Of a DNA stretch of 64,000 nucleotides, positions 11,261 through 33,096 are shown piece by piece. The notes below the pieces were generated by a model. It saw only the letters and a list, made by a program, of their open reading frames with translations, was not told the origin of the DNA and searched no databases. The DNA lies in contig CAIOTC010000018.1 of NCBI GenBank assembly GCA_903861205.1, positions 11,800 through 75,799 on the forward strand, in the 5' to 3' direction. Position numbers and translations under genes: made by a program. The DNA comes from an uncultured bacterium. GTDB lineage: Bacteria; Patescibacteriota; Minisyncoccia; Phycocordibacterales; DATDWN01. How positions within the stretch are numbered: position 1 is the first letter of the stretch; the number at the start of each line of letters is the position of its first letter.

Positions 11261-11270
11261 ATTATCTATT

Positions 11271-14613: not shown

Positions 14614-14637
14614 ACTTTTTTATTAATAAAAGCGGTA

Positions 14638-16440: not shown

Positions 16441-16441
16441 A

Positions 16442-17848
16442 TTATAAATTTTTATTTTTTAATAACACATCTGTCTTGTAGTCTTTAATGACCTCCCAAT
16501 TATTTCCCAAGATTTCCAGTATTTTATTGAGAGTTGGTTCTCCTTCATAATATTCGGTATTGCTGTATTCCGTATAAATGTATTTTATTTTACCTGTCAA
16601 ACTTGTCTCTGCTCCCTTTAATATCAAATCCTCTGCTCCTTGGACATCTGCCCAAATAAAATCAACAATATCAATTTTATTATCTCTAATAAAAGTGTCT
16701 ATTGTTGTGGTTTTTACTTCCAATATTTTATCAAAATTTAAAAATGGCCATGTGGCGTATAAATTTTTTAGATTTGGTTTTTTTAAAGATGAAGAATATA
16801 CGGTTTCCGACTGATGAAATTGCATTTTTCCATCTTTATCTCCGACGGCCATTTCAACGAGCTCGACTCGTTTATCGCGTACTTTTTCTTTGAAAGAGGC
16901 AATATTTCTTGGATCCGGTTCAAAACAATACATCTTAAAATCCGAATTATCAAAAACCTTTATAAATTCCAATGTGTCCAACCCATCAGCGGCCCCTATT
17001 TCAAATATTACAGGCCTATCATTTGAAATTAGTTTTTCTATTTGCATTTTATCCAATGGAATGATTCCATTTTTATCTTGGAAATAATTTATATGCAATG
17101 TGTTTATAATTGACTTAATGAATTTTTTTATCTTACAAATAAATTTTTTTTGCAAACACAAAATTTTCCTAAAGGCTATTCTTAATAAACGATTAACCAT
17201 AATTATTTTTGGAACATTTTTTTTGTATTTATGAAAACCAAAGGGTTCTGACTCCGAATCATCACAATCCATTTCACGACTGAATTTTGAGGCCACAGAA
17301 ACAGGAGCGAGCCGCACACCATATTCCCCCAATTCTTTTTTATAATAATTGGTAATAACCCCATCTTCATTATAATAGCCACTACCATTATCGGTAAAAG
17401 GCAATTTTAACTCATTTAGAGCTTTTAATAACTTCTTACTTCTTAAAGAGAATCCTCCATTTCCAACTCTAATATTAATACCATTTTTATCAAAATGAAG
17501 ATTTTTAGGCCAAGGAGCTCCAACATAGTCATATTTCAAAAATTCATCGCTCCATTTTTCGGGTCTCAAAACATATCCGTCATATTGGACAACCAAGGCA
17601 AATTCAGTGTTTATATATTTAAATAAATCATAAAGCATAAATTTGCTATACTCATTTATATTTTTTATCTGGATGCATGGTTTAAACTTTATTTTATTCG
17701 GAAGACATTCGGGTTTTTGATGTGTAATCAAAATAACCTCATAATAGTTAATTCCATTCATTGATTGTTCCAAAGAGGCGATTGTCTCGTCTATATTTAT
17801 GGAAGAGATGGCAACCAATGTTACATTTTTTAATTCTAAATTAGCCAT
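16442..17848 (-). CDS. Two-domain protein with an N-terminal domain of unknown function (GNGGFSLRS motif, DUF5672-like) and a C-terminal FkbM-family methyltransferase
   Basis: The C-terminal VIFEIGAADGLDTLEFI…CFEPDPRN…GDKDGKMQF is FkbM-like. The N-terminal ~250 aa have no motif I can confidently name. Confidence 0.55.
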   Translation of the reverse strand: MANLELKNVTLVAISSINIDETIASLEQSMNGINYYEVILITHQKPECLPNKIKFKPCIQIKNINEYSKFMLYDLFKYINTEFALVVQYDGYVLRPEKWSDEFLKYDYVGAPWPKNLHFDKNGINIRVGNGGFSLRSKKLLKALNELKLPFTDNGSGYYNEDGVITNYYKKELGEYGVRLAPVSVASKFSREMDCDDSESEPFGFHKYKKNVPKIIMVNRLLRIAFRKILCLQKKFICKIKKFIKSIINTLHINYFQDKNGIIPLDKMQIEKLISNDRPVIFEIGAADGLDTLEFIKVFDNSDFKMYCFEPDPRNIASFKEKVRDKRVELVEMAVGDKDGKMQFHQSETVYSSSLKKPNLKNLYATWPFLNFDKILEVKTTTIDTFIRDNKIDIVDFIWADVQGAEDLILKGAETSLTGKIKYIYTEYSNTEYYEGEPTLNKILEILGNNWEVIKDYKTDVLLKNKNL

Positions 17849-17868
17849 TATTTTTATTCTCGACAGGA

Positions 17869-18636
17869 TTATTGAAATTTTAGCATCAGCAGTATTTTTT
17901 TAAAATACCCCCTCATTTTTTTAGTGAATTGATAATGTCTTTCATACCAATGAGCGTATTTTTTGAAGACTTCAGAGGCCTCACGCATTTGTTTTCCATC
18001 TGCGTCGGTAGAGATGTTGTTGTCAAAAATATGTGTGGTGGCCGGCACCGGAACATATAAGTATTTGTAGTTTTCTTTTGATATTTTTAAATAAAATTCA
18101 TAGTCCAAAGAATATTTATTTTCCTCATCGAATTTGTATTTAAGAAAAACGTGTTTTTTAAAGAACATATCTTGCATTCCCACCATCGTGCCGTATTTCA
18201 GTAGATTTTTACGATTGAATTCCATATTTGGACATTTTCTGAATGTTGTTTTATTTTCAGATGCTATAAAATTATAAGAATCAAAATATATAGCGTCAAA
18301 GTCTGTTTTATTTGCATAGTCGTTTATTGTTCCAAAAATATCCGGTGACAATATGTCATCCGATCCGAGATAACCGATAATATCTCCGGAAACTTTTTCC
18401 AAACCGATATTTAAAGCGCTGGAGATTCCTTTGTCGGGATATTTTAACCAAATAATATTTTTATTTTTTTCAACAAATGATTGAATAATTGCGTGCGACC
18501 TGTCGGTGGATTTTCCGTCCACAATAATTAATTCTTTGTTTGGGTACTCTTGAGACAAGAAGTTATTTATTGATCTGCCGATATATTTTTCGCCGTTGTA
18601 ACTCGGCATAATTATGGAGATTTTGTAATTATGCAT
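17869..18636 (-). CDS. GT2 glycosyltransferase
   Basis: The motifs ISIIMPSYNGEKYIGRSINNFLSQEYPNKELIIVDGKSTDRS and GSDD are present. Confidence 0.75.
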   Translation of the reverse strand: MHNYKISIIMPSYNGEKYIGRSINNFLSQEYPNKELIIVDGKSTDRSHAIIQSFVEKNKNIIWLKYPDKGISSALNIGLEKVSGDIIGYLGSDDILSPDIFGTINDYANKTDFDAIYFDSYNFIASENKTTFRKCPNMEFNRKNLLKYGTMVGMQDMFFKKHVFLKYKFDEENKYSLDYEFYLKISKENYKYLYVPVPATTHIFDNNISTDADGKQMREASEVFKKYAHWYERHYQFTKKMRGYFKKILLMLKFQ

Positions 18637-18637
18637 A

Positions 18638-19711
18638 TTATATAAGTTGTTTTAATTTCAAGACTTCAATTACTCGTTCACAGAAACCAGCAGGCAACCA
18701 TTTTGCATATTTTTCGCTTTTCATATAGCGATCACCGGCAGATAAATATTTATTGTATTCAACTTCTGTCATTTGTGTTATAAACTTGGCTAAATCCGTA
18801 TCATTTTTAAATTTTTTTCGGTCAATAAACGCATCGGGGTCAACATATTTTTTTGCGCTTGGTGATCCCCAATATATCGGTACCACTCTGGCCGCCAATG
18901 AATCAAATATTTTATCTGAAACATATCCATTGCCATCGGAAATATTTTCGTAGCAAATATTAAATTTATATTGTGACAATGTGCCGATTTTGTCTTTGGC
19001 AAAACCGCGATATGTTCCATATTTCTTTACTAATCGAGGAAAAATTAAATCTAATCTGGTAATCGGTTGATTCCATCGCAAACCATACAAATCAAAGTCA
19101 TTGGGGTAGTGAGAATCAAAGTAGGCAATTGCCTCTCTTCTTGCCGAGTATAGCTCATTTTTGTAGTCTGAATATTTGTTGTGTGAGATATTGACTAAAA
19201 GTTTTTTACTGTTAAAAGGACGGGCTTCCGGCAATATTTCTGAGAGAGCTGCCGGAAGATAAAATTTGAAATATTTTTTATTATCTACCAAATCATTATC
19301 CCAAGTAATAATAGTTGAAAATTTATTATGGATGGATTTTGCATAATTGTAAGGTTTTACAGATTTACCCTCCCACATCAACAAAACCATTTTATCTTTC
19401 ATTCCAGCATCAATGCACTCCTTGTAAACATTTCTTTTTGCCGGTTTTTCTTTTTTTAATAAACTTTTTAAAAAAGAGACGATATTTGTTATTGGATATT
19501 CTAATTTTTCACCCAAACTGTTGCTATCAATGAAAAGTATCATGGCGCAATCTTTCAGATCATTTTGATGAACAGTTTTAAGGTTGTATCCGATTTCAGA
19601 TAATTTATGACTAAAAATTTCCCATAATCCACCATCATTATTAATCTCATCATCAGATATTGGTTTATTCCCAAATGCATGACTTTCGAGACTTATCAAC
19701 AGGTTTTTCAT
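18638..19711 (-). CDS. GT10 alpha-1,3/4-fucosyltransferase-like protein
   Basis: KFNICYENISDGNGYVSDKIFDSL matches the GT10 FxxFENS…Y(V/I)(T/S)(E/D)K signature. Confidence 0.5.
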   Translation of the reverse strand: MKNLLISLESHAFGNKPISDDEINNDGGLWEIFSHKLSEIGYNLKTVHQNDLKDCAMILFIDSNSLGEKLEYPITNIVSFLKSLLKKEKPAKRNVYKECIDAGMKDKMVLLMWEGKSVKPYNYAKSIHNKFSTIITWDNDLVDNKKYFKFYLPAALSEILPEARPFNSKKLLVNISHNKYSDYKNELYSARREAIAYFDSHYPNDFDLYGLRWNQPITRLDLIFPRLVKKYGTYRGFAKDKIGTLSQYKFNICYENISDGNGYVSDKIFDSLAARVVPIYWGSPSAKKYVDPDAFIDRKKFKNDTDLAKFITQMTEVEYNKYLSAGDRYMKSEKYAKWLPAGFCERVIEVLKLKQLI

Positions 19712-19714
19712 GTT

Positions 19715-20935
19715 TTATTTTGAGAAAGTTTTTATAAGAATAGCAATTTCTTTTTTTGTCAGATCCGGGTTGTTTCCAAAATAAAAACCAAGCTCGTGTA
19801 TTTTTTCAGCGTTTGGTAAAAAATATTTAGTGGCGATATATTTTTTGTAAAATGCGTGTTTGTTTATACTGCCCGCCACAATAGGTCGTATTTCAATTTC
19901 AGCCTTTTTTGCCAGCTCCATATACTTTTCTTTTATTGATTTTGATTTACAAATAAGAGGAAAGGCAAAATTGGAAACCACATTCAAACCATCAGTTTTC
20001 ATTTTTACAAAATCCTTATTCTGATATATTTTCTCAAATTTTTTATAATTTTCTTGACGCTTTTTAATCATTTCATCCAAGTATTTCAATTGATTCAAAC
20101 CAAGAAAACCGTTTATTTCAGTTGGGCGAAAGTTATACCCTATGTCGTAAAAAGTAAATTTTCCATAGAATTCGTCCACATTGTATTTCAGTCTCAATTT
20201 TTTTTGTTCGTTCTCTGATATGTGACGGTCCCATCCATGAGACCGCACTATCCTAAGCATTGTGTCTATTTCCAAATCATCAGTGCAGACCATGCCACCT
20301 TCTATGGTTGACATATGATGACCGGCATAAAAAGAAAAAGTTGAAGCAAAGCCGAAATTACCCAGTTTTTCTTTTTTGTATTCAGTGCCCAGTGATTCGC
20401 AGTTGTCTTCTATAAGCAGAATATTATTTTTTTTGCAGAATTTTCTAATTTTTCCTATATCGTCGCAATATCCCAAAAGATTTGTAATAAATAAACATTT
20501 AAATTTATGTTTCTTGTGGATTTCAATAATTTTTTTTGAAGAAATATTCAACGTGTCCATTTCTATGTCAATTGGCACCGGATTGAGTTTCAGGGTAATA
20601 AGGGGCATTACATTTGTTGCCCAGGTTACAGCTGAAAATCCAACACTATCTCCTTCTTTTATTTTATTTAAATTTATAAGCACTTGAATCAAAGCCAGGT
20701 TGGCGGAACTTCCACTGTTGAACATAACAGAGTATTTTCTTCCTTGCCAATGAGAAAATTTAGTCTCAAATTCAGAGCACATTTTATCCATGGATAATTG
20801 TTTGGCTTGTTTTATGAATTTGCATAAAGCCTCTTTGGTAGCTTCTTCTTTGTGGAAAGTCGATTTGATTAGTTTGATCATTTTTTTGAATTTTATTTCA
20901 GAGGCCCGGGTTCCTGTCTGCTTAATTTTGTCCAC
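19715..20935 (-). CDS. PLP-dependent DegT/DnrJ/EryC1 family enzyme, probably a sugar 3-dehydratase (ColD/E1-type) rather than an aminotransferase
   Basis: The fold is aspartate-aminotransferase-like (GSSANLALIQ, LIEDNCESLG). The Schiff-base lysine position reads FYAGHHMSTIEGG, with His in place of Lys, as in GDP-4-keto-6-deoxymannose 3-dehydratase ColD and CDP-6-deoxy-L-threo-D-glycero-4-hexulose 3-dehydrase E1. Confidence 0.6.
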   Translation of the reverse strand: MDKIKQTGTRASEIKFKKMIKLIKSTFHKEEATKEALCKFIKQAKQLSMDKMCSEFETKFSHWQGRKYSVMFNSGSSANLALIQVLINLNKIKEGDSVGFSAVTWATNVMPLITLKLNPVPIDIEMDTLNISSKKIIEIHKKHKFKCLFITNLLGYCDDIGKIRKFCKKNNILLIEDNCESLGTEYKKEKLGNFGFASTFSFYAGHHMSTIEGGMVCTDDLEIDTMLRIVRSHGWDRHISENEQKKLRLKYNVDEFYGKFTFYDIGYNFRPTEINGFLGLNQLKYLDEMIKKRQENYKKFEKIYQNKDFVKMKTDGLNVVSNFAFPLICKSKSIKEKYMELAKKAEIEIRPIVAGSINKHAFYKKYIATKYFLPNAEKIHELGFYFGNNPDLTKKEIAILIKTFSK

Positions 20936-21936
20936 AATTCAAGAGACATATTAAGTATTCCCGCAAAATTGTTTCTTTCTATTTCTATCAGATTTTTATT
21001 TAACCATTTCTCCAGAGTTTTAATCGTACTTTCAAGACTGTATTTGGGTTTCCAGTCAAAATCTTTTTCAAAGGATTTTGATGTAATCTGGAGATTTCGC
21101 ATATCACCCACATCACTTTGAGAGACTATCCTGCACTTTACCACTTTCTGCACAGCTTCACCAAATTGTTTTTTTGAGAAGTTGTGTTTACCAATATTAT
21201 ATATCAGACGAGGCCATTTATCTTTTTTCATAATTGCAAAATAGCCACTGGTTATGTCTCGAATATCCACGGCTGCTCTAAATGCATTCAGTTCTGAAAT
21301 TCTGATAAGACCTTGGGACACGGCACAATAGGTAAAATGGTTTGGCAGGAGTTCTATTCGCATTCTGGGGGATATTCCGCAAACAGTTGCGGGACGAAGT
21401 ATGATGATTCTAAATTTTGGATTTTTCTTAACTTTATTTTTGATATAGGATTCCATTTGCAATTTGTATTTGCAGTAGTTATCGGTTGACTTTGGCAGGG
21501 GATCATTTTCACCCATGAGTTTCATTTCTTTTTGATTGCCATAAAGACTGGATGTTGAATTATAAATAATCGGAATTTCCAGCTTTTCTGCCAAGTCAAT
21601 AACCCTTTTTGAGGCCTCATAATTTAAATCTCTTGTATAATTTGGGTTATGATTGCAAGCCCAGACACTGGAAAGTTCGGCAAAATGGAAAAGAAAATCC
21701 GGTTTGAAATCTTCCAACGTTTTTTTGAGCAGTTCAAGATTTCTAGTATCTCCAATGACATATTGCAATTCAGACTTAGAGTTTTTCCCAGTTTCTATTT
21801 CTTTGATTATTTTTTTGTAATCCTGCTCGTATATAAGAGAGTCATATAACATAACAGAAAGACCTTTTGTCAACGCTTCTTTGGCTAGTTGTGAGCCAAT
21901 ATAACCCAATCCTCCGGTAATAAAGATTTTTTGCAT
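20893..21936 (-). CDS. NAD(P)-dependent nucleotide-sugar epimerase/reductase (extended SDR)
   Basis: It has the Rossmann motif IFITGGLGYIGSQLAKE and YxxxK (YCKYK). Confidence 0.7.
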   Translation of the reverse strand: MQKIFITGGLGYIGSQLAKEALTKGLSVMLYDSLIYEQDYKKIIKEIETGKNSKSELQYVIGDTRNLELLKKTLEDFKPDFLFHFAELSSVWACNHNPNYTRDLNYEASKRVIDLAEKLEIPIIYNSTSSLYGNQKEMKLMGENDPLPKSTDNYCKYKLQMESYIKNKVKKNPKFRIIILRPATVCGISPRMRIELLPNHFTYCAVSQGLIRISELNAFRAAVDIRDITSGYFAIMKKDKWPRLIYNIGKHNFSKKQFGEAVQKVVKCRIVSQSDVGDMRNLQITSKSFEKDFDWKPKYSLESTIKTLEKWLNKNLIEIERNNFAGILNMSLELWTKLSRQEPGPLK

Positions 21937-21969
21937 ACACCTAAAACTATCATAATTTTATGGGTATGT

Positions 21970-23001
21970 CTATAATTGTTCTTTTGCCCACTCCATATTA
22001 TTTTTAAGTCCTTTTGAAAATGGCGTAAATTTTAATTTCTTCATTTCTTTTTTTATTTTACTGAGATTTAGTCTGACTATTTTTGGATCTTTTCCTATAT
22101 AAGCCAACTTTGAAATATTTGCCGGAATTTCGTATTTTACATTGCATAATCTGGCAATTTTTTTTGCCAGGTTCAAAATGGAAAGACTGTCTTTTCCCCC
22201 GACGTTGTAGACGAAATCTTTTCCATAAAAAGCGATAAAAAGAATCATGGCTACGCTGTCGGCGATGTATCCATAAGTCCTGGTTGATTTTCCGCCATCA
22301 AGCAACTTGATATTTTTTTCCACCAAGGCTTTTTTTATGAACTCGCTCAAGACCCGTTTGTCGTCAAGCGGAAGTCCTGGTCCATAAGTAACAGAAATCC
22401 TGACAATTTTTATGTTTGATCCTTTATCTCTTTTATAAGCTGCACAAAGAGCTTCTCCCAAACGCTTTGATTCAGCGTAAACGGATCTTGGCAAATGCAG
22501 TGGGGAATTGCCGTTATAGTTTTCTTTGACCGGAATAAACTCCTGCGGTATATCTCCATAAACTTCGGCGGAGCTGAAAAAAATAAAGGTGGCATTTGGA
22601 GACATATCCAAGAGTCTTTGGGTCGCATCAATATTTATTTTTGTTGTTCCGTTATAATCATTGACGAACTTAGCCGGTTGGCTGTATCCGGCAGAATGAA
22701 AAATATAATCGTACCCCTTCAGATCAAAAGATTTAGTCAAGTCAACACGATGATAAAAAATATTTTTGTGTTCTTTCAAAATGGAAGAAAGGATTTCTTT
22801 TGGAGCGTTCAAACCGGTGGCCTCAATCGTATTGCCGAGATTCATTTCATGATTGGCCAGAGAAAGGGCGGCAGTAATGTGCTGACCGAGGAAGCCGTTT
22901 GCTCCGGTAACAAGGATTTTTTTTCCTTTGATTTTTCCGAGATTAACTTGACTTAAAATTTTTCGACAATCATTTTCTATTATTTTGTTCATCATTTTCA
23001 A
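21970..23001 (-). CDS. NAD(P)-dependent nucleotide-sugar epimerase/dehydratase (extended SDR)
   Basis: It has the Rossmann motif ILVTGANGFLGQHI and YAESKRLGE (YxxxK). Confidence 0.7.
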   Translation of the reverse strand: MKMMNKIIENDCRKILSQVNLGKIKGKKILVTGANGFLGQHITAALSLANHEMNLGNTIEATGLNAPKEILSSILKEHKNIFYHRVDLTKSFDLKGYDYIFHSAGYSQPAKFVNDYNGTTKINIDATQRLLDMSPNATFIFFSSAEVYGDIPQEFIPVKENYNGNSPLHLPRSVYAESKRLGEALCAAYKRDKGSNIKIVRISVTYGPGLPLDDKRVLSEFIKKALVEKNIKLLDGGKSTRTYGYIADSVAMILFIAFYGKDFVYNVGGKDSLSILNLAKKIARLCNVKYEIPANISKLAYIGKDPKIVRLNLSKIKKEMKKLKFTPFSKGLKNNMEWAKEQL

Positions 23002-24823
23002 TTATTTTGGTTTTCTCGCCACCCGGCAGAGGCGGATTTTCCCATCCTTCTATGGGGTTTATTGTCATGTTTTTGTAAAATTCATCGCGAGGAAGGTATG
23101 GATACATATCTTCTATCGGGGTGTTCCAACCAAAAACTCTTGGTTCGTACTTGTACCATTCCCCGCAGTTCACATCACAGACGATCGGTCCGTCATGTGC
23201 CAAAACTTCACCCACTATTTTTTTCACATCGTCGATCTTGTCAATTTTTTTGGTGGTAACGCCATAAGCGCCGGAAATTTTGACGAAGTCCGGAGCGACA
23301 TACCCTTTTGGTCCCGATGCTTCGTGACGTCCTTCAACATTCGTGTCTTGGAACGCCTTAATTATTCCATAAACATGATTGTTTAAAATGAACGTTTTCA
23401 CTTTGATGCCGTATGTTATCAATGTTTGCAATTCTTGGATGTTCATATTGAATCCGCCGTCTCCGATTATGCAAACCACCGAACCCTTTTTGTCCGAGGC
23501 AAACCACGCGCCGATGGCTCCGCAAAAAGAAAAACCCATGGGCGAATTGCCGTTGTTTGAAAAATATCTTTGGCCGTTTTTTGTTTCAAAAGCATGGTTG
23601 CTGATGACTATATTTCCTCCGCAATCTGTCACCAGAATATCATCTGGTTTCATCTCTTGCGAAAGCATTCTGACGAAAGCGTAAGGGTTGACATTTTCTT
23701 TCTGGGTAAAATATTCCGGCTTGACGGGATCGTAAATATTTTTCCATTCCAAAACTTGCTTTGTCCATTTAGACACATCCGGCAAGTTTGTTCCAAAAAG
23801 CTTGTTTCCCAAACGTTCCAAGAACATTTTAGCGTCGCAGTATATGCTGACATCAAACGGCACCTGTTGAAGTTTTTTCTGCAAAAGGGCTGGATCCACA
23901 TCAACCACATATTTTTTGGCTTCTCTGGCGAATGTTTTTAAATTTCCTCCGGTGATTCGACCCGATATTCGACTTCCGACCGCAATCAGCAAATCGCTAT
24001 TTTGAATGCCAAAATTTCTTCCTCGCCCGCCGTATGTTCCGACATTTCCGCCGTAAAATTCATAATCAGCCGGAACAATATCAAGGGCGTTCCAAGTCGG
24101 GAAAACCGGAATTCTGAGAAGTCTTCCCACTTTTTGCAACATATCGGTTGCTCCGGCGGTTCTGACACCTCCACCAACAAGCATGACCGGCCGTTTTGCC
24201 GTTTGCAAATCTTTCAGGAGCTGGTTTATTTTGGCATCAACGATTTTTATGTCAAACAACGCGCGTTTTGTTTGGCTGTCAAAACCGACAAGTGTATTCG
24301 GGTCTATTTCAGCTTTCTGCAAGTTTTGGGGAATATCCAAAAGAACCGGTCCGGGCCTGCCGTCAGTGGCCAAAAACCAAGCCTTTTCAATTTCGTATTT
24401 TATATCTTCCGCTTTGGTAATAAGTTTTGAATATTTTGTAATAGGGGAAGTTATAGCCACAATGTCAGTTTCTTGAAAACCAACCTGCCTTATGTCATTG
24501 TCTTGACGCAAGAATTCTGAATTAATCTGTCCGGTTATAAAAATGGCAGGTACAGAGTCATAAAAACAGTTTCCGATAGAAGTGACGAGATTCATACCCC
24601 CGGGCCCGCTGGTGGCTATGGCCACTCCCGGTATGCCTTTTATTTTAGCATATCCTTCAGCTGCAAAACCGGCCGCCTGTTCGTGCATAGTGGCAACATA
24701 CTCAGCTTTGTCCGTTCTTGTAAAAGCGTCAATAATGTAGGCATTGGCGGCTCCCGATACAACAAACATTTTGTCGACCCCTTTATCGGCAAGGAAATTC
24801 ACGACAAAATCAGCTAATTTCAT
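22970..24823 (-). CDS. Thiamine-diphosphate-dependent enzyme of the acetolactate-synthase large-subunit family, a candidate YerE-like sugar C-branching enzyme
   Basis: It has all three TPP-enzyme domains (N-terminal Pyr, central and C-terminal PP with the GDGG motif IIGDGGFNMN). Its genomic context, next to the 3-dehydratase and SDRs, suggests a role in branched-chain deoxysugar synthesis. Confidence 0.7.
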   Translation of the reverse strand: MKLADFVVNFLADKGVDKMFVVSGAANAYIIDAFTRTDKAEYVATMHEQAAGFAAEGYAKIKGIPGVAIATSGPGGMNLVTSIGNCFYDSVPAIFITGQINSEFLRQDNDIRQVGFQETDIVAITSPITKYSKLITKAEDIKYEIEKAWFLATDGRPGPVLLDIPQNLQKAEIDPNTLVGFDSQTKRALFDIKIVDAKINQLLKDLQTAKRPVMLVGGGVRTAGATDMLQKVGRLLRIPVFPTWNALDIVPADYEFYGGNVGTYGGRGRNFGIQNSDLLIAVGSRISGRITGGNLKTFAREAKKYVVDVDPALLQKKLQQVPFDVSIYCDAKMFLERLGNKLFGTNLPDVSKWTKQVLEWKNIYDPVKPEYFTQKENVNPYAFVRMLSQEMKPDDILVTDCGGNIVISNHAFETKNGQRYFSNNGNSPMGFSFCGAIGAWFASDKKGSVVCIIGDGGFNMNIQELQTLITYGIKVKTFILNNHVYGIIKAFQDTNVEGRHEASGPKGYVAPDFVKISGAYGVTTKKIDKIDDVKKIVGEVLAHDGPIVCDVNCGEWYKYEPRVFGWNTPIEDMYPYLPRDEFYKNMTINPIEGWENPPLPGGEKTKIIENDEQNNRK

Positions 24824-24854
24824 GGATTTGAGTGTTATTTTATAACATCAATCA

Positions 24855-26036
24855 TTATGCATTTTCAGTTGCATTATGCAACCTTTGACACCCTTCCAAT
24901 AAATTTTTTGCGGTATTGGCATAACACATGCGAACATAATTTTTTCCTCCTTCGCCGAACCCTGAACCCGGGCAGAGGACAACGCCGTGATTTTCCATGG
25001 CATGTTTTGCAAATCCATCTCCATTCATGCCGGTTTTGGAAACGTCAATCATAATATAAAACGCTCCGTCCGGTTTTGAAAATTCAATCTTTTTGATTTT
25101 TTTAAGTTCAGAACAGACGATCTCGCGTAATTTTTTGTATTCTGTAAAATATCGTTTGACAAATTTTTTTCTATCAGTCAGAGCCGTAATGCAAGCATCT
25201 TGCAAAAAAGGCGGAACACACGAGATTATTGTTTGGGACAGAAGAGCTATTTTATTGATAATATCTTCCGGACCGATTGCGTATCCGACTCGCCACCCAG
25301 TCATGGCAAATGGTTTTGAAAAACCGTTTGTGACAATGACTCTTTCAAGACAATGATCTATTGTTCCGGCCGAAAAATGAGCTCCTTCATATATAAGCTG
25401 TGAATAAATTTCGTCGCTTAAAATGTACAAGTTGTGTTTTTTTGCTATCTTATAGATTTCAACAATATCTTTCTTTGAATAAACCGCTCCGGTTGGATTT
25501 GACGGCGAGTTGATTACTATAAGGCGCGTTTTTGAAGTAATTTTTTTTTCTATTTCTTTCGGATCAAAACGAAAATTATTTTTATGATTTACTTTAACCC
25601 TGACATCTTTGATTTTGAGCATATTCATAACAGCGTTATATGTCACGAATGATGGATCGGTCAGAATCACTTCCTCTCCGGGGTTTACAAGTATGGAAAT
25701 AACATAATAAATAAGCGGATTTGCTCCTGATGTAACAACAATCTGGGGCAGTGAAGGTTTAAAACCAAAATCTTCCTTTACGGCTTTCTGGATTGCCAAA
25801 CGCAAGGAGTGTTCTCCAAATGAACTGCCATAATGAGTATGGTTAGATTTCATCGCCAAAGATGCGCTTTTCTTTACTTCCGGTGGCATTTCCAGATGCG
25901 AGTCGCCTATTTCAAAGTGAATTAAATGTTTGCCGTTGCGCTCCAATTCTTTAGCTTTGTCCAAAATAGCAAACATGGATTGACCAACTATTCTTTCTCC
26001 AAAATCTGAAAATGTATGATGATTTAATTTATTCAT
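24855..26036 (-). CDS. Class I/II PLP-dependent aminotransferase (AspAT-like)
   Basis: The length and motifs fit aminotransferase fold type I (GxxNP…, SKPFAMTGWRVGYA with Lys in the SKxF context, NPTG). Confidence 0.7.
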   Translation of the reverse strand: MNKLNHHTFSDFGERIVGQSMFAILDKAKELERNGKHLIHFEIGDSHLEMPPEVKKSASLAMKSNHTHYGSSFGEHSLRLAIQKAVKEDFGFKPSLPQIVVTSGANPLIYYVISILVNPGEEVILTDPSFVTYNAVMNMLKIKDVRVKVNHKNNFRFDPKEIEKKITSKTRLIVINSPSNPTGAVYSKKDIVEIYKIAKKHNLYILSDEIYSQLIYEGAHFSAGTIDHCLERVIVTNGFSKPFAMTGWRVGYAIGPEDIINKIALLSQTIISCVPPFLQDACITALTDRKKFVKRYFTEYKKLREIVCSELKKIKKIEFSKPDGAFYIMIDVSKTGMNGDGFAKHAMENHGVVLCPGSGFGEGGKNYVRMCYANTAKNLLEGCQRLHNATENA

Positions 26037-26769
26037 ATTTTATGAAAATTACATCTCCATCAGTCGGTTGTCCGGTTTTTTTGTCGATAAGGCCGTAACT
26101 TTTATGCAATCTGTAACCAAATTGTTCCAAAAATTTTTTTATATCACTAAATAATGGCTGATTTTTGTACACTTCCATATACATCACTTCTGTATAGATC
26201 AGGTCAATTTTTTTGTTCGATAGCATTTTTTCGGTTCCTTGCAACACCAAAAGTTCACCACCCTGGACATCCATTTTCAAAATATTTATTCTTTCTATTT
26301 TATTTTTTTCACAATAGCTATCAAGCGTTTCCGTATTGACTTCAATCTTTCCCATTTTTTGAAAAGCATCTTTTCCTTTTGTAAATTCTTCGTTATTTTG
26401 TAGCAGTGAATTGCAACCATGAAAACTGTTGACAAAAAATTCTGCCGTTCCATTTTGATTTGAAAGAGCAATATTGACGCAATGAACCTTCTTGTCTCCA
26501 TGAACGGACTCTACATATTCCCCAAACATTCTGGGAAACGGTTCAAATCCATGAATGGAAGCCTTCGGAAACATTTTTCTGTATTTATGTGTTGTTTGTC
26601 CGGCATTTGCTCCAACGTCAAAAATTATACCGGCCGGCGCGGAAGCGAATAATTTTTTTTGTTCCAAATAATCTTCACTCAATTTTATTTTAAGTACGCT
26701 TAAATCATACCCAAAATATTTTCTTACAATATATTTGACTAGGTTTTTAGCTTTCTGCCAAGATTTCAT
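26029..26769 (-). CDS. FkbM-family SAM methyltransferase
   Basis: IFDVGANAGQTT…GFEPFP…NGTAEF is the FkbM signature. Confidence 0.7.
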   Translation of the reverse strand: MKSWQKAKNLVKYIVRKYFGYDLSVLKIKLSEDYLEQKKLFASAPAGIIFDVGANAGQTTHKYRKMFPKASIHGFEPFPRMFGEYVESVHGDKKVHCVNIALSNQNGTAEFFVNSFHGCNSLLQNNEEFTKGKDAFQKMGKIEVNTETLDSYCEKNKIERINILKMDVQGGELLVLQGTEKMLSNKKIDLIYTEVMYMEVYKNQPLFSDIKKFLEQFGYRLHKSYGLIDKKTGQPTDGDVIFIKYE

Positions 26770-26775
26770 GTAAGT

Positions 26776-28047
26776 TTATTGAAGTTTCTCCGTTTTATAG
26801 TCAAGTATTGTGGATATTTTTCCCCAAAATGACGATCCGAATAATAATTCTCTGGGATTTTTTTCATTAGTTATAACCATACTGATATCATTGATGGTAT
26901 CTATACTTTTTTTACCATCGCTCAAATGCTTTAGCCAAATAGTGATAGATATCATACCAATTTGGAATAGAAAAGCCGGTACTTCCACACGAACTTTGTA
27001 TTTTCCCGGTTCATAATTTCTATATGTTCCGGTACCGTCTCCTTCGGTAGATAATAATATAAATTCACCTTGATAGTAAAAATACAGAAAAATCATTTTA
27101 TTCTCAATATATTTTCTGATATCAAGCTCAATTTCAATAAAAAACTTTTCCCCAACGGGTATCTGAGCTTTTGGGGCATTTTCTTGATTTAATATACTAA
27201 CTTTTGTGATTTGACCGTCAAGTTCATTTTTTATTGGATATTCCGTTACGGCATTCAAAGTTCTGTCAACATTCAAATAATAATTTATTACCTCTGAAGT
27301 TTCTCCAAATTTTACAATTTCTCCTTTTTTCAAAAGAATTGTTTTTGTGCATAATCTTTCCACCGCATCCATGTTATGACTTACGAAAATAATAGTTCGC
27401 CCCTCTTTTCTGGTGATATCTTCCATTTTTCCCAAGCATTTTTTTTGAAACTCCACATCGCCAACCGCGAGCACTTCATCTATTATTAAAATATCCGGTT
27501 CCATATGAGCGGCCACGGAAAAAGCCAAGCGGACGTACATTCCGCTGGAATAATATTTGACCGGAGTGTCCAGAAATTTATCAATTTCGGCAAATTTTAC
27601 AATCTGATCAAATTTTTTGGCAATTTCTTTTTGAGTCATTCCGAGAATTGCGCCGTTTAAAAAAATATTTTCCCGACCGGTCAGCTCCGGATGAAAACCG
27701 GTACCAACTTCAAGCAAACTTCCCACACGGCCCATTATTTTTATTTCACCTGTCGTAGGCGGAGTTATTTGCGAAAGGATTTTCAGCAGAGTCGACTTTC
27801 CGGCCCCATTGCCGCCGATAATGCCGATAATTTCTCCTTTTTTAACTTCAAAATCAATATCTTTTAAGGCCCAAAAATCTTCTCTGGTTTCAAGACCGGC
27901 CACTTGTTTTACTTTTGTTTTTAAAAAGGAAAAAGGAGATTTGATGGCGTTCATTAAAACGTCGCGCAGGGCAACATAACTTCCACGCTGATGGGTGATG
28001 TTATATTTTTTTCCTATCCCTTTGATTGTTATGATTGGTTTTTCCAT
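26776..28047 (-). CDS. wzt: ABC transporter ATP-binding protein of the polysaccharide-export type (Wzt/TagH-like) with a C-terminal extension
   Basis: The N-terminal ABC ATPase has Walker A (GIIGGNGAGKST), the signature YSSGM and Walker B (ILIIDE). An additional ~170-aa C-terminal domain is consistent with a glycan-terminus-binding domain. Confidence 0.8.
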   Translation of the reverse strand: MEKPIITIKGIGKKYNITHQRGSYVALRDVLMNAIKSPFSFLKTKVKQVAGLETREDFWALKDIDFEVKKGEIIGIIGGNGAGKSTLLKILSQITPPTTGEIKIMGRVGSLLEVGTGFHPELTGRENIFLNGAILGMTQKEIAKKFDQIVKFAEIDKFLDTPVKYYSSGMYVRLAFSVAAHMEPDILIIDEVLAVGDVEFQKKCLGKMEDITRKEGRTIIFVSHNMDAVERLCTKTILLKKGEIVKFGETSEVINYYLNVDRTLNAVTEYPIKNELDGQITKVSILNQENAPKAQIPVGEKFFIEIELDIRKYIENKMIFLYFYYQGEFILLSTEGDGTGTYRNYEPGKYKVRVEVPAFLFQIGMISITIWLKHLSDGKKSIDTINDISMVITNEKNPRELLFGSSFWGKISTILDYKTEKLQ

Positions 28048-28053
28048 AATGGT

Positions 28054-28890
28054 TTATACTATATCCGCAAAATATCTTTCTGTTTTTTTGAAAACATAAA
28101 CGCCCAAAATCATAATGATGAATGTGGCGACGAAAGAAATCAAAATCAAGAACCAATTAATCGGCGCTGTTCCTAGCAAGGATGCTCTGGCGTTTTGGAT
28201 TACTCCCATCATTGGATTGAGAGCAAGGATTTTTGAATATTTTCCGGCAATTGAAGCGGGGTAGATAACCGGTGTCAAAAATAACATAATTTGAATAAAA
28301 AAAGGAAGAACATACCTGACATCTCGATATTTAACATTTATAGAAGCCAGAACAAGTCCCATGCCGATAGAAGCCATAAAAGTGATAAGAAGAAGCAGGG
28401 GTAAAATCCAAAGTCCTGAAATATGTGGCATGTATCCATAATAAAACATCAGACCAACTAATATTATGGAGGCAATTAGAAAATCTATAAATTTTGTTGC
28501 CACAGATGATATGGGTAAAATCAATCTGGGAAAATAAACTTTAGTGATTATGGCTTGATTGCTTAACAAAGCGTTGCTGGTGTCTGCCAGGGCACTTGAA
28601 AAAAATTGCCAAAATAAAAGACCAACATAAACAAAAATGGGGTAGGGAACCCCATCTGATGGCATTTTAGCCAATCCGCCAAAAAAAACAGAGAAAACCA
28701 CCATTGTAATAAATGGTTGGAAAATAGCCCAAGCCACACCTATCATCGTCTGTTTATAACGGACTTTGAGGTCACGCCAAACGAAGAAATACATAAGTTC
28801 TTTATATTTCCAAAGCTCGGTAATATCACGAAAAGAAAAAAGCTTTTTGGGCCGTATAATAGTCTCTTTTGTGGCGACAGAAGAATTCAT
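28054..28890 (-). CDS. wzm: ABC-2 type polysaccharide export permease (Wzm-like)
   Basis: It has 6 TM helices, is ABC2-membrane-like, and lies immediately upstream of the ATPase in the same operon. Confidence 0.75.
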   Translation of the reverse strand: MNSSVATKETIIRPKKLFSFRDITELWKYKELMYFFVWRDLKVRYKQTMIGVAWAIFQPFITMVVFSVFFGGLAKMPSDGVPYPIFVYVGLLFWQFFSSALADTSNALLSNQAIITKVYFPRLILPISSVATKFIDFLIASIILVGLMFYYGYMPHISGLWILPLLLLITFMASIGMGLVLASINVKYRDVRYVLPFFIQIMLFLTPVIYPASIAGKYSKILALNPMMGVIQNARASLLGTAPINWFLILISFVATFIIMILGVYVFKKTERYFADIV

Positions 28891-31035: not shown

Positions 31036-31989
31036 TTATTTTTTGTCTTTAGGGCGATTTTTTAGAAACCAATCAATAGTTTTTTTCAATCCTGTTTTTA
31101 AATCTACTTCTGAAACAAATCCGAGTTCTCTTTTGGCAAGACTTACATCCAACTTTCTTCTTGGTTGTCCGTCCGGTTTGGTTTTATCCCAGACGATTTT
31201 TCCTTTGTAATCAATTATTTCCGCAATAATTTTAATTACATCTTTTATTTTGATTTCAAAACTACTACCTATATTTATAGGATTAACGTTGTTGTATTTC
31301 AGTGTTGCCAAAACTATTGCTCTGGCCGCATCTTCTACAAATAAAAATTCACGACTGGCCCGTCCCGTACCCCAGACAACCACTTCCGGTTTGTTTTGCT
31401 CTTTAGCCTCAACAAATCGTCGTATAAGAGCGGGAATAACATGTGAATGGGTGGGATTAAAATTATCTCTGGGGCCGTATAGATTTACCAAAATGAGGTT
31501 GATTCCGTTAAAATCATACTGATCCTTATAAGCTTCCAGTTGAACTATGAGCATTTTTTTCGATAATCCATACGGAGCATTTGTTTCTTCGGGGTAACCT
31601 ATCCAGAGATCTTCTTCCATAAAGGGGATTCGAATGGGGATTTTAGGATATGCGCAGACGGTTCCGATTTGAACAAATTTTTTTACTTTGGCTTTGCGAG
31701 CTTCTTCTATAAGATGTATTCCCATTACAGCATTATCGTAAAATAAAATTCCCGGAAATTCTTTGTTGAAACCTATACCTCCGACTGTTGCGGCCAAGTG
31801 AATAACCACGTCCATATTTTTTACTGCCTTCTCGCAATTTTTTTGTATTCGCAAATCCAACTTTTTACTTCTTGGGCGAAAAATATTTTTTTCTTGAGCG
31901 CCGTTTTTCAAAAGTCCTTCAAACACAGCCTGTCCCAAAAAACCGTAACCCCCGGTAAGCAAAATTTTTTTGTTTTTTATATCAATCAT
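31036..31989 (-). CDS. fcl: GDP-L-fucose synthase (GDP-4-keto-6-deoxy-D-mannose 3,5-epimerase/4-reductase)
   Basis: It has the SDR Rossmann motif KILLTGGYGFLGQAV, is ~317 aa, and sits immediately downstream of gmd in the same orientation. Confidence 0.7.
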   Translation of the reverse strand: MIDIKNKKILLTGGYGFLGQAVFEGLLKNGAQEKNIFRPRSKKLDLRIQKNCEKAVKNMDVVIHLAATVGGIGFNKEFPGILFYDNAVMGIHLIEEARKAKVKKFVQIGTVCAYPKIPIRIPFMEEDLWIGYPEETNAPYGLSKKMLIVQLEAYKDQYDFNGINLILVNLYGPRDNFNPTHSHVIPALIRRFVEAKEQNKPEVVVWGTGRASREFLFVEDAARAIVLATLKYNNVNPINIGSSFEIKIKDVIKIIAEIIDYKGKIVWDKTKPDGQPRRKLDVSLAKRELGFVSEVDLKTGLKKTIDWFLKNRPKDKK

Positions 31990-33036: not shown

Positions 33037-33096
33037 ATGCAAGTTATACCATAATGGTATTTTCTTTTCCAATTTGGATTTGCTATACTTTCAAAC

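Follow-up and report, generated by a model that had tools for sequence, protein, structure and literature searches.

A predicted pathway for a C-4-branched deoxy sugar in a surface-glycan operon of an uncultured Patescibacteriota bacterium

Which sugar would be made by a cassette that encodes both a DegT-family dehydratase and an acetolactate synthase-like ThDP enzyme? The question is raised by a stretch of 64,000 nucleotides (the window) from an uncultured Patescibacteriota bacterium (assembly GCA_903861205.1, contig CAIOTC010000018.1, positions 11,800 to 75,799). The answer favored here, somewhat ahead of all others combined, is that the genes belong to a surface-glycan operon served by a Wzm/Wzt exporter and are predicted to make a 3-deoxy nucleotide sugar with an acyl or hydroxyalkyl branch at C-4, most likely a 3,6-dideoxy sugar. 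An earlier note had read the cassette in much this way from the window alone, and that reading was largely supported, with the product and the activities standing as predictions from sequence.

All five cassette genes were confirmed on the minus strand (Table 1). They are transcribed in the order aminotransferase, ThDP enzyme, SDR-B, SDR-A and DegT, so that the DegT gene, which the earlier note described as followed by the two SDR genes and the ThDP gene, is in fact the last of the five. The array that runs from wzm to the last GT2 gene contains 16 genes, successive members of which overlap or are separated by at most 33 nt. Wzm and Wzt, predicted to form an ABC exporter of a lipid-linked glycan, are encoded by its first genes, and the genes between 10226 and 18636 are all co-directional with gaps of at most 24 nt.

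Table 1. Positions of the predicted genes discussed in the text, with the supporting matches
Feature	Position in window	Strand	Match
GT2	10226-11260	-	Pfam
SDR epimerase-like	11271-12197	-	Pfam
GT17+GT11 fusion	12182-13858	-	Pfam
Methyltransferase	13855-14613	-	Pfam
GT11-like	14638-16440	-	Pfam
DUF5672+FkbM fusion	16442-17848	-	Pfam
GT2	17869-18636	-	Pfam
GT10-like (fucosyltransferase-family) glycosyltransferase	18638-19711	-	Pfam Glyco_transf_10, E 2.6e-13
ColD-type nucleotide-sugar 3-dehydratase	19715-20881	-	DegT_DnrJ_EryC1, E 7.9e-62
Extended SDR-A	20893-21936	-	Pfam Epimerase, E 2.8e-29
Extended SDR-B (UXS/ArnA-like)	21970-22995 (ORF to 23001)	-	2b69
Three-domain ThDP enzyme, 617 aa	22970-24823	-	TPP_enzyme_N, M and C domains
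Class I (AspAT-like) aminotransferase	24855-26036	-	Aminotran_1_2, E 1.8e-64
FkbM-family methyltransferase	26029-26769	-	Methyltransf_21, E 1.8e-27; TIGR01444, 109.6 bits (cut-off 37.7)
Wzt	26776-28047	-	Pfam ABC_tran; best NCBIfam TagH/Wzt family
Wzm	28054-28890	-	Pfam ABC2_membrane; best NCBIfam Wzm family
B12-binding radical SAM enzyme (KedN5-like C-methyltransferase family)	29037-30989	+	Pfam Radical_SAM + B12-binding
Fcl-like GDP-sugar epimerase/reductase	31036-31989	-	NF047922 GDP-L-fucose synthase, 265 bits (cut-off 500)
GDP-mannose 4,6-dehydratase (Gmd)	32008-33072	-	TIGR01472, 564.7 bits (cut-off 415); GDP_Man_Dehyd, E 2.2e-153

The DegT open reading frame spans 19715-20935, and public gene calls place its start at an ATG at 20881, which gives a protein of 388 aa. 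The protein contains the motif FYAGHHMSTIEGG, and in phmmer alignments the first His of this motif occupies the column of ColD His188, the same column in which the mutants 3b8x and 2r0t carry N and K, respectively. The GHH of the window protein aligns with S-H188-H of ColD and with the HH of E1, so the proposal that a His replaces the PLP-binding lysine withstood the alignment that could have overturned it. His was found at this position in 55 of the 56 DegT homologues that neighbor the same ThDP family elsewhere, and the substitution is therefore not a chance one. The best PDB match was ColD (2gms, E 3.6e-58); E1 (3bcx) matched at 3e-42. Of the ColD/E1-type assignment first offered, only the ColD part stands (both types as defined in PMC8987622): the E1 [2Fe-2S] motif RDCYCAPGCDNTCKK aligns with WDRHISENEQKKLR, which has no Cys, and because this motif is absent the dehydratase was classed as ColD-type rather than E1-type. 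Neither an E3-like reductase gene nor a CDP-glucose pathway or nucleotidyltransferase gene was found in the window, and the score against the RfbH model, 213 bits, was far under its cut-off of 423. The NCBIfam search of the protein gave no ColD-specific match and hence no curated family assignment.

The closest structures to the ThDP enzyme were JanthE (8rph, 325 bits) and PpYerE (5ahk, 287 bits), both ketone-accepting YerE-like enzymes (PMC12247030, PMC12188165), ahead of plant AHAS (266 bits) and E. coli AHAS I (223 bits). In a neighbor-joining tree that held two AHAS sequences only, it fell with 100% bootstrap support in a clade of YerE-like enzymes that also includes its counterpart from an E1-type cluster (L019) and that stands apart from E. 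coli IlvB and IlvI. Characterized YerE-like enzymes are only about 32% identical to it, hardly more than IlvI at 31%. The protein carries GDGGFNMN, and where AHAS has RFDDR it has RISGR, which is invariant in its family. Its best NCBIfam model was TIGR00118 (acolac_lg, E 1e-124), for which the score of 417 bits is under the cut-off of 538, as it is under the cut-off of every AHAS equivalog. Public annotations name its relatives acetolactate synthase large subunit. No ilvN, ilvC or ilvD gene was found in the window. These results support the earlier view of the enzyme as YerE-like and not an acetolactate synthase; by homology it is predicted to be a carboligase of the AHAS superfamily that takes an acyl group from a 2-oxo acid and joins it to a sugar nucleotide at its C-4 ketone.

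Approximately 95 related loci encode the same ThDP family, with 58-82% identity. Where at least 8 kb was available on each side of the ThDP gene (n = 29), a His-type DegT gene was present in 86% of the loci, an SDR-A homologue in 83%, a B12-radical-SAM gene in 76% (other subfamilies included), and either PanB or an aminotransferase of class I in 90%. These percentages are not independent counts, since the sets contain redundancy, one cassette type being shared by many of the metagenome loci. SDR-B homologues were found in only 21% of loci. In one locus (L107) the order of the window is repeated: Wzm, Wzt, aminotransferase, ThDP enzyme, SDR-B, SDR and a DegT protein with GHH. The reverse search, which set out from orthologues of the aminotransferase, led to ThDP loci in all three further cases looked up. 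DegT was absent within 10 kb in about half of the closest relatives (ThDP enzyme at least 70% identical, usable flanks), among them L018, L021 and two others, and L106 has no DegT gene but a sugar-nucleotide (UDPG/GDP-Man) dehydrogenase-like gene. Because their co-occurrence is conserved across loci, a functional link between the DegT and ThDP enzymes is supported, as is their earlier placement in one pathway. The expectation that such a pathway would be unusual for this lineage was not borne out: homologues 75-82% identical, with the aminotransferase-ThDP-SDR order kept, are frequent in Patescibacteria contigs, and the cassette extends to DPANN archaea and to several phyla of bacteria.

The aminotransferase gene adjoins the ThDP gene, immediately upstream. 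Its product is most similar to aromatic and aspartate aminotransferases of P. horikoshii (about 1e-68) and contains the PLP Lys (SK240), NPTG, DEIY and Arg368; its orthologue group is sharply bounded, with 64-81% identity inside and at most 49% for the next sequences. In the window's family the slot upstream of the ThDP gene holds this aminotransferase or a PanB that scores above the panB cut-off, and in the canonical E1-type cluster L019 it holds an HMGL-like aldolase, a layout that matches the published ErwI/ErwE scheme (PMC9306805). From gene position and analogy with donor-forming enzymes of related clusters, the aminotransferase is probably the source of the 2-oxo-acid donor, which is the least certain step of the pathway, and/or is predicted to serve the dehydratase by recycling glutamate and 2-oxoglutarate.

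Of the two nearby genes reported earlier as gmd and fcl, gmd was verified by its score and the other can be called only Fcl-like, under the cut-off; it is a candidate GDP-fucose synthase or ColC-like enzyme, ColC being a homologue of Fcl. With gmd nearby, the carrier is probably GDP rather than the CDP of the yersiniose pathway. Genes of the GT10 and GT11 families lie within the operon, Gmd orthologues (51-62% identity) lie beside the cassette in seven other loci, and ManC is encoded in two. Large-genome cassettes carry HddA-like kinase genes and a nucleotidyltransferase gene with top scores on guanylyltransferase models. The sugar of the window is most likely 6-deoxy; clear Gmd orthologues were found in only about 10% of the well-flanked loci, so that this feature is not a general one.

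SDR-A was most similar to 6vo6 (E 2.8e-33; next match about 1e-14), which we take to be the Campylobacter jejuni C4-dehydrogenase Cj1427, and it may act on nucleotide sugars as a C4 oxidoreductase or an epimerase. An enzyme of this type could yield a 4-keto sugar without 6-deoxygenation, and a 3,6-dideoxy product is less certain than the earlier note had it. The SDR-B gene overlaps the end of the ThDP gene and follows it directly in ten other loci. Its best PDB match was UDP-glucuronate decarboxylase (2b69, E 6.3e-30). SDR-B may reduce the newly added acyl branch (a YerF-like role) or be a 4-keto-forming enzyme; because the catalytic residues of the UXS type are conserved in it (at the S-x-E, YxxxK and Arg positions), it could make a 4-keto-pentose acceptor instead of reducing the branch.

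Several other genes may act on the product. The GT10-like gene starts 3 nt downstream of the dehydratase gene and encodes a candidate transferase for a GDP-linked product; homologues (36-48% identity) were found at four other ThDP loci. The FkbM-family methyltransferase next to the aminotransferase is probably involved in O-methylation of the glycan or sugar. The B12-radical-SAM gene is divergent from wzm, and its product, which scores 292 bits against NF033712 (cut-off 700), is a candidate C-methylase of the branch, donor or sugar; homologues adjoin the ThDP gene in three loci, in one of them as two copies.

In the proposed pathway Gmd, assigned to its family by score, would convert GDP-mannose to GDP-4-keto-6-deoxymannose. 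The ColD-like enzyme, with PMP regenerated from glutamate, would then expel the 3-OH to give GDP-4-keto-3,6-dideoxymannose, ammonia and 2-oxoglutarate, a step proposed because of the His and the lack of both the Cys motif and E3. As homology and conserved context suggest, the ThDP enzyme would decarboxylate a 2-oxo acid and attack the C-4 ketone with the acyl anion equivalent, so that C-4 becomes a tertiary alcohol bearing an acyl branch. An amino acid would be the source of that 2-oxo acid, formed by the aminotransferase, which may also return 2-oxoglutarate to glutamate. SDR-B and/or SDR-A could reduce the branch ketone or change the ring stereochemistry, methyl groups could come from the FkbM methyltransferases and the B12-radical-SAM enzyme, and the GDP-sugar would be used by GT10/GT11-type transferases before the glycan leaves via Wzm/Wzt.

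The same genes might instead serve two parallel pathways, an unlikely alternative. Gmd, the ColD-type enzyme and the Fcl/ColC-like enzyme, all of which are present, would make GDP-colitose (or GDP-fucose and colitose) for the GT10/GT11 transferases, and a self-contained trio of aminotransferase, ThDP enzyme and SDR-B would branch another 4-keto sugar, for instance a 4-keto-pentose that SDR-B would derive from a nucleotide-linked uronate, as happens on the way to eurekanate. The kinship of SDR-B with UDP-glucuronate decarboxylase and its catalytic residues fit this arrangement, as do L018 and L021, where the trio has no DegT or Gmd gene within 10 kb, and L106, where it adjoins the dehydrogenase-like gene. 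The feeding of ThDP C-4 branching by UXS-like enzymes is also discussed for everninomicin (PMC10338323). Yet the 86% of well-flanked loci that pair a His-type DegT with the ThDP family mostly do so without Gmd, the DegT gene of the window is packed in the same string as the ThDP gene (two genes after it, with SDR-B and SDR-A between), no uronate-forming dehydrogenase was found in the window, and SDR-B, at 21% of loci, cannot be the general supplier of the acceptor.

It is considerably less probable that the aminotransferase and ThDP enzyme act off the sugar, turning an amino acid via a 2-oxo acid into an aldehyde or acyloin that, once reduced, would become a non-carbohydrate substituent of the glycan. 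The aminotransferase does look like a canonical alpha-amino-acid enzyme, with its PLP Lys and carboxylate-binding Arg, the tightest neighbors of the ThDP gene are the aminotransferase or PanB plus the B12-radical-SAM gene, and the AHAS superfamily, judged by the PDB matches, performs many decarboxylations and carboligations. However, the nearest characterized enzymes are ketone-accepting and branch sugars, the SDRs of the cassette are of the extended, nucleotide-sugar type, and this explanation gives no reason for the near-universal presence of a 3-dehydratase, which is known to yield nothing but a 4-keto-3-deoxy sugar nucleotide. Least probable by far is an ordinary AHAS for branched-chain amino acids that lies in a glycan operon by chance. 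TIGR00118 as best model and the public labels on relatives favor it, but the shortfall of 417 bits against 538 and against all other AHAS cut-offs, the missing ilv genes, the family-invariant RISGR, the separation from IlvB and IlvI in the tree and the glycan context kept across about 95 loci all speak against it.

The branched-sugar pathway favored here would be chemistry of a known kind in a variant that is undescribed and widely shared. It follows the logic of yersiniose A synthesis in Yersinia pseudotuberculosis (Eod, E1/E3, YerE, YerF), one enzyme of each class being present in the window. There, a 4,6-dehydratase and a His-type PMP 3-dehydratase give a 4-keto-3,6-dideoxy sugar nucleotide, to which an AHAS-like ThDP enzyme adds a 2-oxo-acid acyl group at C-4 before a reductase acts; the class I aminotransferase and B12-radical-SAM enzyme of the window have no counterpart (PMC9306805, PMC12247030). 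The window also differs in its ColD-type dehydratase, without the [2Fe-2S] motif and without E3, in its probable GDP carrier in place of CDP, and in a ThDP enzyme only about 32% identical to the YerE-like enzymes with structures.

As in the window, a gene of 2-oxo-acid metabolism lies beside the ThDP gene in the erwiniose, caryophyllose and "gastriose" clusters, where ErwE, MMAR_2332 and MyGE are paired with the donor-forming aldolases ErwI, MMAR_2331 and MygI (PMC9306805). In the window's family this partner is an aminotransferase or PanB hydroxymethyltransferase, often with a B12-radical-SAM enzyme, rather than an aldolase, and the published pathways run on CDP-3,6-dideoxy-4-keto-glucose. 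The eurekanate ThDP enzymes of avilamycin and everninomicin synthesis are two-subunit proteins of the pyruvate-dehydrogenase E1 type, not AHAS-like. That system recalls SDR-B in that a UXS-like SDR is tied to ThDP C-4 branching (PMC10338323); no uronate-forming dehydrogenase was found in the window.

Campylobacter jejuni acts on GDP-linked sugars with a C3-dehydratase that resembles ColD and works with PLP and glutamate (PMC10680097). The large-genome cassettes, with their HddA-like kinase and guanylyltransferase-like genes, resemble this GDP-heptose system, whereas the window has Gmd and not heptose-forming genes. To our knowledge, C-branching is not known in C. jejuni GDP-heptose modification. 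With the GDP-colitose pathway (Gmd, ColD, ColC) the window shares Gmd, a His-type, Fe-S-free, glutamate-dependent class of 3-dehydratase and an Fcl/ColC-like gene adjoining gmd. Colitose synthesis involves neither a ThDP enzyme nor an aminotransferase nor further SDRs, whereas the dehydratase gene of the window is embedded among genes for these and accompanies the ThDP family from phylum to phylum.

The five genes that the earlier note had read as a pathway for a branched or dideoxy sugar were found where it had placed them, with the starts of two of them trimmed in public gene calls. All five lie in a co-directional array of sixteen minus-strand genes, in which neighbouring genes overlap or are separated by at most 33 nt. 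The remainder of the window encodes additional glycosyltransferases and the housekeeping genes secA, gatB and obg; the named homologues of the Obg protein came from Minisyncoccia, Parcubacteria and Zambryskibacteria (70-73% identity), which places the source organism among the Patescibacteria. An Rfam scan of the whole window returned no matches.

Positions of the glycan-locus genes and of other features in the window
Feature	Position	Strand	Remarks
Sixteen-gene array	10226-28890	-	
Wzm, then Wzt		-	first genes of the array; ABC glycan exporter
FkbM methyltransferase		-	after Wzt in transcription order
Class I aminotransferase	24855-26036	-	
Three-domain ThDP enzyme	22970-24823	-	
Extended SDR "B" (SDR-B)	21970-22995	-	start 22995 per public gene calls
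Extended SDR "A" (SDR-A)	20893-21936	-	
DegT-family protein	19715-20881	-	start ATG 20881 per public gene calls
GT10-like transferase, then GT2, GT11-like and GT17+GT11 transferases, more methyltransferases, one further SDR		-	downstream of DegT
DUF5672 + FkbM methyltransferase fusion	16442-17848	-	
GT17-like + GT11-like fusion	12182-13858	-	
B12-binding radical-SAM enzyme	29037-30989		divergent from wzm
Fcl-like gene	31036-31989		beyond the radical-SAM gene
gmd	32008-33072		beyond the radical-SAM gene
O-antigen-ligase-like/TPR protein			beyond the radical-SAM gene, with the Fcl-like gene and gmd
ORF paralogous to 61004-61666	38849-39559	+	
4377-aa ORF	47859-60992	+	
ORF paralogous to 38849-39559	61004-61666	+	directly 3' of the 4377-aa ORF

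The G+C content of the ThDP, radical-SAM and gmd genes was 0.43-0.45, compared with 0.29-0.32 in the adjoining glycosyltransferase genes, which could reflect either acquisition from outside or strong sequence constraint. Homologues of the GT17+GT11 fusion protein were also present in L007, L008, L018 and L021, the closest Patescibacteria loci (L-numbers denote other genome or metagenome loci that carry relatives of the window's ThDP enzyme). The 4377-aa ORF contains many repeats of the type GNVGIGT(T/S)SP, has a G+C content of about 0.5-0.57, well over the 0.29-0.36 of the glycan operon, and probably encodes a giant surface or adhesin-like protein. The two paralogues (about 220-236 aa each) have the motifs EGEYYH..NRG and PNHFH in common and look like relatives of HUH/Y1 (IS200/REP-type) transposases.

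Comparison of the DegT-family protein with solved structures ranked ColD highest (2gms, E 3.6e-58), followed by E1 (3bcx, E 3e-42) and then by true sugar aminotransferases (E values of 1e-27 or higher). Nucleotide-sugar 3-dehydratases are defined by a His that replaces the PLP-binding lysine of the sugar aminotransferases (PMC8987622). The first His of the motif FYAGHHMST aligned to His188 of ColD, a column identified by means of the engineered ColD chains 3b8x (Asn) and 2r0t (Lys), and the HH of E1 fell in the same column as this His, so that the His at the catalytic-Lys position noticed earlier was borne out. The earlier assignment had been to a ColD/E1 type, and only its ColD half was retained. 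E1 and SpnQ contain a [2Fe-2S] cluster bound by four cysteines and need a reductase, while ColD has neither (PMC8987622). The Cys-motif region of E1, RDCYCAPGCDNTCKK, aligned to WDRHISENEQKKLR in the DegT protein, which has no Cys there. None of the scanned window ORFs resembled E3, the reductase partner of E1, or a ferredoxin or flavin reductase, and the score against the RfbH model NF011936 was 213 bits, below the cut-off of 423. Because the protein lacks the [2Fe-2S] Cys motif and no E3 reductase ORF was found among the scanned window ORFs, it was assigned to the ColD type, and an E1-type dehydratase working with E3 was excluded.

The ThDP enzyme has the TPP_enzyme_N, M and C domains, the architecture of the AHAS superfamily, with the motif MHEQ, which includes the catalytic Glu, and the ThDP-binding motif IGDGGFNMN. 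Its highest-scoring matches in the PDB were 8rph (325 bits) and 5ahk (287 bits), ahead of the AHAS of plants (266), yeast (241) and E. coli (223). These two structures are JanthE and PpYerE, respectively, both of which belong to the YerE-like enzymes and use ketones as acceptors for 2-oxo-acid donors (PMC12188165, PMC12247030). The best NCBIfam model was acetolactate synthase, but its cut-off of 538 bits was not reached (417 bits), and the scores against all other AHAS models were also below their cut-offs. The RFDDR motif of AHAS is replaced by RISGR in every member of the window's ThDP family; the GDGGFNMN motif of this family is also present in the ThDP enzyme of L019, a Candidatus Riflebacteria contig. 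A neighbor-joining tree (574 columns, 200 bootstraps) was inferred from 12 members of the window family, JanthE, PpYerE, the L019 enzyme and IlvB and IlvI of E. coli, with Gcl as the outgroup. The window family, JanthE, L019 and PpYerE grouped together with 100% bootstrap support, separately from IlvB and IlvI, and ilvN, ilvC and ilvD were not found among the window ORFs. The raw identity of the window enzyme was 32% to YerE-like enzymes and 31% to IlvI, and with such near-equal values and thin sampling of AHAS the tree is supporting evidence for a YerE-like placement, short of proof. The view that the enzyme is YerE-like rather than IlvB gained support from the PDB ranking, the tree, the RISGR motif and the low AHAS model scores; the motif and the tree, together with score cut-offs and gene context, also led to the rejection of a bona fide AHAS.

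The aminotransferase matched the Pfam family Aminotran_1_2 (E 1.8e-64), and its nearest solved relatives were archaeal aromatic and aspartate aminotransferases. With the PLP lysine (SK240), N180 (NPTG), D208 and Y211 (DEIY) and the carboxylate-binding R368 all in place, it is predicted to be a canonical class I (AspAT-like) alpha-amino-acid enzyme; its scores were below all of the specific equivalog cut-offs. Its homologues formed a clearly delimited group of 41 clusters (64-81% identity), the next ones being no more than 49% identical. Fifteen of these clusters were on contigs equally long as those of ThDP clusters, and all three of the further clusters that were looked up were located in ThDP loci. 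Judged from these sequence comparisons, the aminotransferase is part of the same cassette as the ThDP gene. The gene order in L107 was that of the window (Wzm-Wzt-aminotransferase-ThDP-SDR-B-SDR-DegT, the DegT protein having GHH), and that in L105 was Gmd-aminotransferase-DegT(GHQ)-SDR-A-like, with the ThDP gene farther on.

A possible role for the aminotransferase is suggested by known branched-sugar clusters. A published "unifying scheme" describes donor-forming aldolases (ErwI, MMAR_2331 and MygI) encoded beside the ThDP gene (PMC9306805). As an internal control for this pattern, L019 was examined, which contains a canonical CDP/E1-type branched-sugar cluster (L019:4003-13984): a nucleotidyltransferase, a 4,6-dehydratase, an E1-like DegT protein with the Fe-S Cys motif, an HMGL-like aldolase, a ThDP enzyme 36% identical to that of the window, FkbM and an SDR. 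The HMGL-like aldolase gene is immediately upstream of the ThDP gene. In the window family the position beside the ThDP gene is occupied by the aminotransferase, or by a PanB, whose L011 copy scores above the panB cut-off. Because known clusters and L019 place a donor-forming aldolase there, the aminotransferase is a candidate supplier of the 2-oxo-acid donor. A gene for PanB (3-methyl-2-oxobutanoate hydroxymethyltransferase) directly adjoined the ThDP gene in 23 of 94 loci (L011:7179-8066 and 22 others, including L012, L014, L017, L059, L067, L076, L089 and L096), usually with a B12-radical-SAM gene present, so the donor in these cassettes may be a 2-oxo acid similar to ketopantoate. The SDR of L019 was compared with SDR-A and SDR-B in search of a YerF-like reductase, and no informative similarity was found.

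More than 120 database clusters were 64-82% identical to the window's ThDP protein, which appears unusually conserved. When one genome per species was considered, relatives were found in Parcubacteria, Saccharibacteria, Terriglobia, Rhodospirillales, Planctomycetia, Woesearchaeota and Pacearchaeota, and a metagenome scan added up to at least 412 confirmed relatives. In about 95 non-redundant ThDP loci, every ORF was compared with the window proteins. His occupied the ColD H188 column in 55 of the 56 DegT homologues beside a ThDP gene, the exception being the second DegT protein of L019. Among the 29 loci in which the ThDP gene is flanked by at least 8 kb on either side, a His-type DegT gene was present in 86% (25 of 29), an SDR-A homologue in 83%, a B12-radical-SAM gene in 76%, a class I aminotransferase in 66%, a PanB-like gene in 24% and one or other of the last two in 90%; a GHMP kinase and a nucleotidyltransferase were each present in 62%, and a clear Gmd orthologue in 10%, all of these percentages being inflated because many of the loci are similar and have the layout of large genomes. 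That layout is DegT-Fcl-like-SDR-A-GHMP kinase-nucleotidyltransferase-aminotransferase-rSAM-ThDP, while marine contigs have rSAM-PanB-ThDP-DegT and Patescibacteria have aminotransferase-ThDP-SDR-B. The window's radical-SAM enzyme and those in the other layouts share only about 21% identity. The closest ThDP relatives (at least 70% identity, usable flanks) had a DegT gene within 10 kb in only about half of the cases; in L008 it was about 10 kb from the ThDP gene, past wzm.

The earlier note had expected such a sugar to be unusual for the lineage, which did not hold: the cassette is common in Patescibacteria. It was also found on DPANN contigs, L016 and L014 from Pacearchaeota and L011 from Woesearchaeota; L016 encodes SDR-B, the ThDP enzyme (60%), the aminotransferase (46%), a DegT protein (52%, GHH) and an Fcl-like gene. 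These copies imply that the pathway has been exchanged between ultra-small bacteria and archaea. In L004 (2306-11839) and about 25 similar metagenome loci, genes for DegT(GHQ), an Fcl-like protein, an SDR-A-like protein, an HddA-like GHMP kinase, a guanylyltransferase-like nucleotidyltransferase, an AspAT-like aminotransferase, the B12-rSAM and the ThDP enzyme are followed by genes of the GT9 heptosyltransferase family, which may point to a branched 3-deoxy sugar, either a heptose or a hexose, in an LPS core.

The front end of the pathway is probably GDP-based, a reading that draws on gene context. The predicted Gmd scored 564.7 bits against TIGR01472, above the cut-off of 415, and is encoded 11 kb from the DegT gene in the same glycan locus; Gmd is also present in L003, L005, L012, L030, L088, L095 and L105, and ManC in L006 and L055. 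The nucleotidyltransferase of the large-genome layout scored highest against guanylyltransferase models, and GT10 and GT11 family genes adjoin the pathway genes in the window. The nearest PDB match of SDR-A was 6vo6 (E 2.8e-33), which we take to be the GDP-heptose C4-dehydrogenase Cj1427; should GDP-mannose be oxidised at C-4 by SDR-A, the pathway could yield a 3-deoxy instead of a 3,6-dideoxy sugar. SDR-B resembles UXS, keeps the catalytic residues (Ser-x-Glu, YxxxK and Arg) and might instead generate a 4-keto-pentose acceptor. In keeping with this alternative is L106, a 16.8-kb contig without DegT, on which a short UDPG/GDP-mannose-dehydrogenase-like gene precedes the aminotransferase, ThDP (77%) and SDR-B (64%) genes (L106:6716-12353) and may provide another route to a keto-sugar acceptor. 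The DegT gene of the window, which shares an operon with the ThDP gene, fits the ColD-type route. The Fcl-like gene could encode a colitose synthase of the ColC type, in which case colitose and the branched sugar may have a common intermediate.

Two other readings of the gene set were rejected. An aminotransferase, a ThDP decarboxylase and a B12-rSAM would also suit phosphonate decoration in the style of fosfomycin or AEP, but the operon has no gene for a PEP-mutase-like protein, and its ThDP enzyme resembles AHAS and not Ppd. The aminotransferase of the large-genome layout, which occurs with a GHMP kinase, was considered as a CobD-like decarboxylase acting together with that kinase; it is AspAT-like instead, matching the window enzyme with E 1e-66.

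In the ColD-type route, every functional step of which is a prediction, Gmd would form GDP-4-keto-6-deoxymannose. The ColD-type enzyme, with glutamate regenerating PMP, would then remove the 3-OH to give GDP-4-keto-3,6-dideoxymannose, ammonia and 2-oxoglutarate, by a mechanism described for ColD (PMC8987622) and also shown for the GDP-heptose C3-dehydratase of C. jejuni (PMC10680097). YerE acts on pyruvate and CDP-3,6-dideoxy-4-keto-glucose (PMC9306805, PMC12247030); by analogy the ThDP enzyme, encoded together with enzymes for a 4-keto-3-deoxy sugar in that the His-type DegT gene is in the same operon, would decarboxylate a 2-oxo acid and add the acyl unit at C-4 of the sugar, leaving a tertiary alcohol. 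An SDR would reduce the new ketone, the role of YerF, the reductase of the yersiniose pathway. The aminotransferase would supply the 2-oxo-acid donor and could simultaneously turn the 2-oxoglutarate from the dehydratase back to glutamate.

To our knowledge, no glycan structures are known from Patescibacteria or DPANN archaea, the surfaces of which presumably mediate attachment to host cells. It is possible, though we consider it rather doubtful in its entirety, that a cassette exchanged across domains (Patescibacteria, DPANN, Terriglobia, Planctomycetia and Proteobacteria) encodes a conserved YerE-like ThDP enzyme (58-82% identity) that branches a GDP-3-deoxy-4-keto sugar with an amino-acid-derived or tailored 2-oxo acid from a dedicated aminotransferase or PanB, often with a B12-rSAM methylase, yielding branched sugars new among glycan structures on the surfaces of ultra-small symbionts. 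Such a conserved, horizontally exchanged branched-deoxy-sugar pathway is a concrete and testable prediction about the surface chemistry of Patescibacteria and DPANN. If true, it would extend ThDP sugar branching from CDP-sugars (E1/E3) to GDP-sugars (ColD-type enzyme), add a new supply of acyl donors by transamination or PanB-type hydroxymethylation, possibly with radical-SAM methylation, and reveal a large pool of conserved ketone-accepting carboligases that may be useful to biocatalysis. If the locus makes plain colitose and an unrelated product instead, it would represent routine O-antigen-type biology.

No GDP/ColD-coupled YerE-like pathway was found in the literature, though earlier catalogues may include some of the loci, nor were such branched sugars found there for Patescibacteria or DPANN. 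The chemistry proposed for the window cassette is already known from the pathways to yersiniose and erwiniose. It differs from them in its ColD-type and probably GDP-based front end and in its distinct, highly conserved ThDP subfamily, and where the known clusters carry an aldolase, the window family has an aminotransferase or PanB, together with a B12-rSAM.
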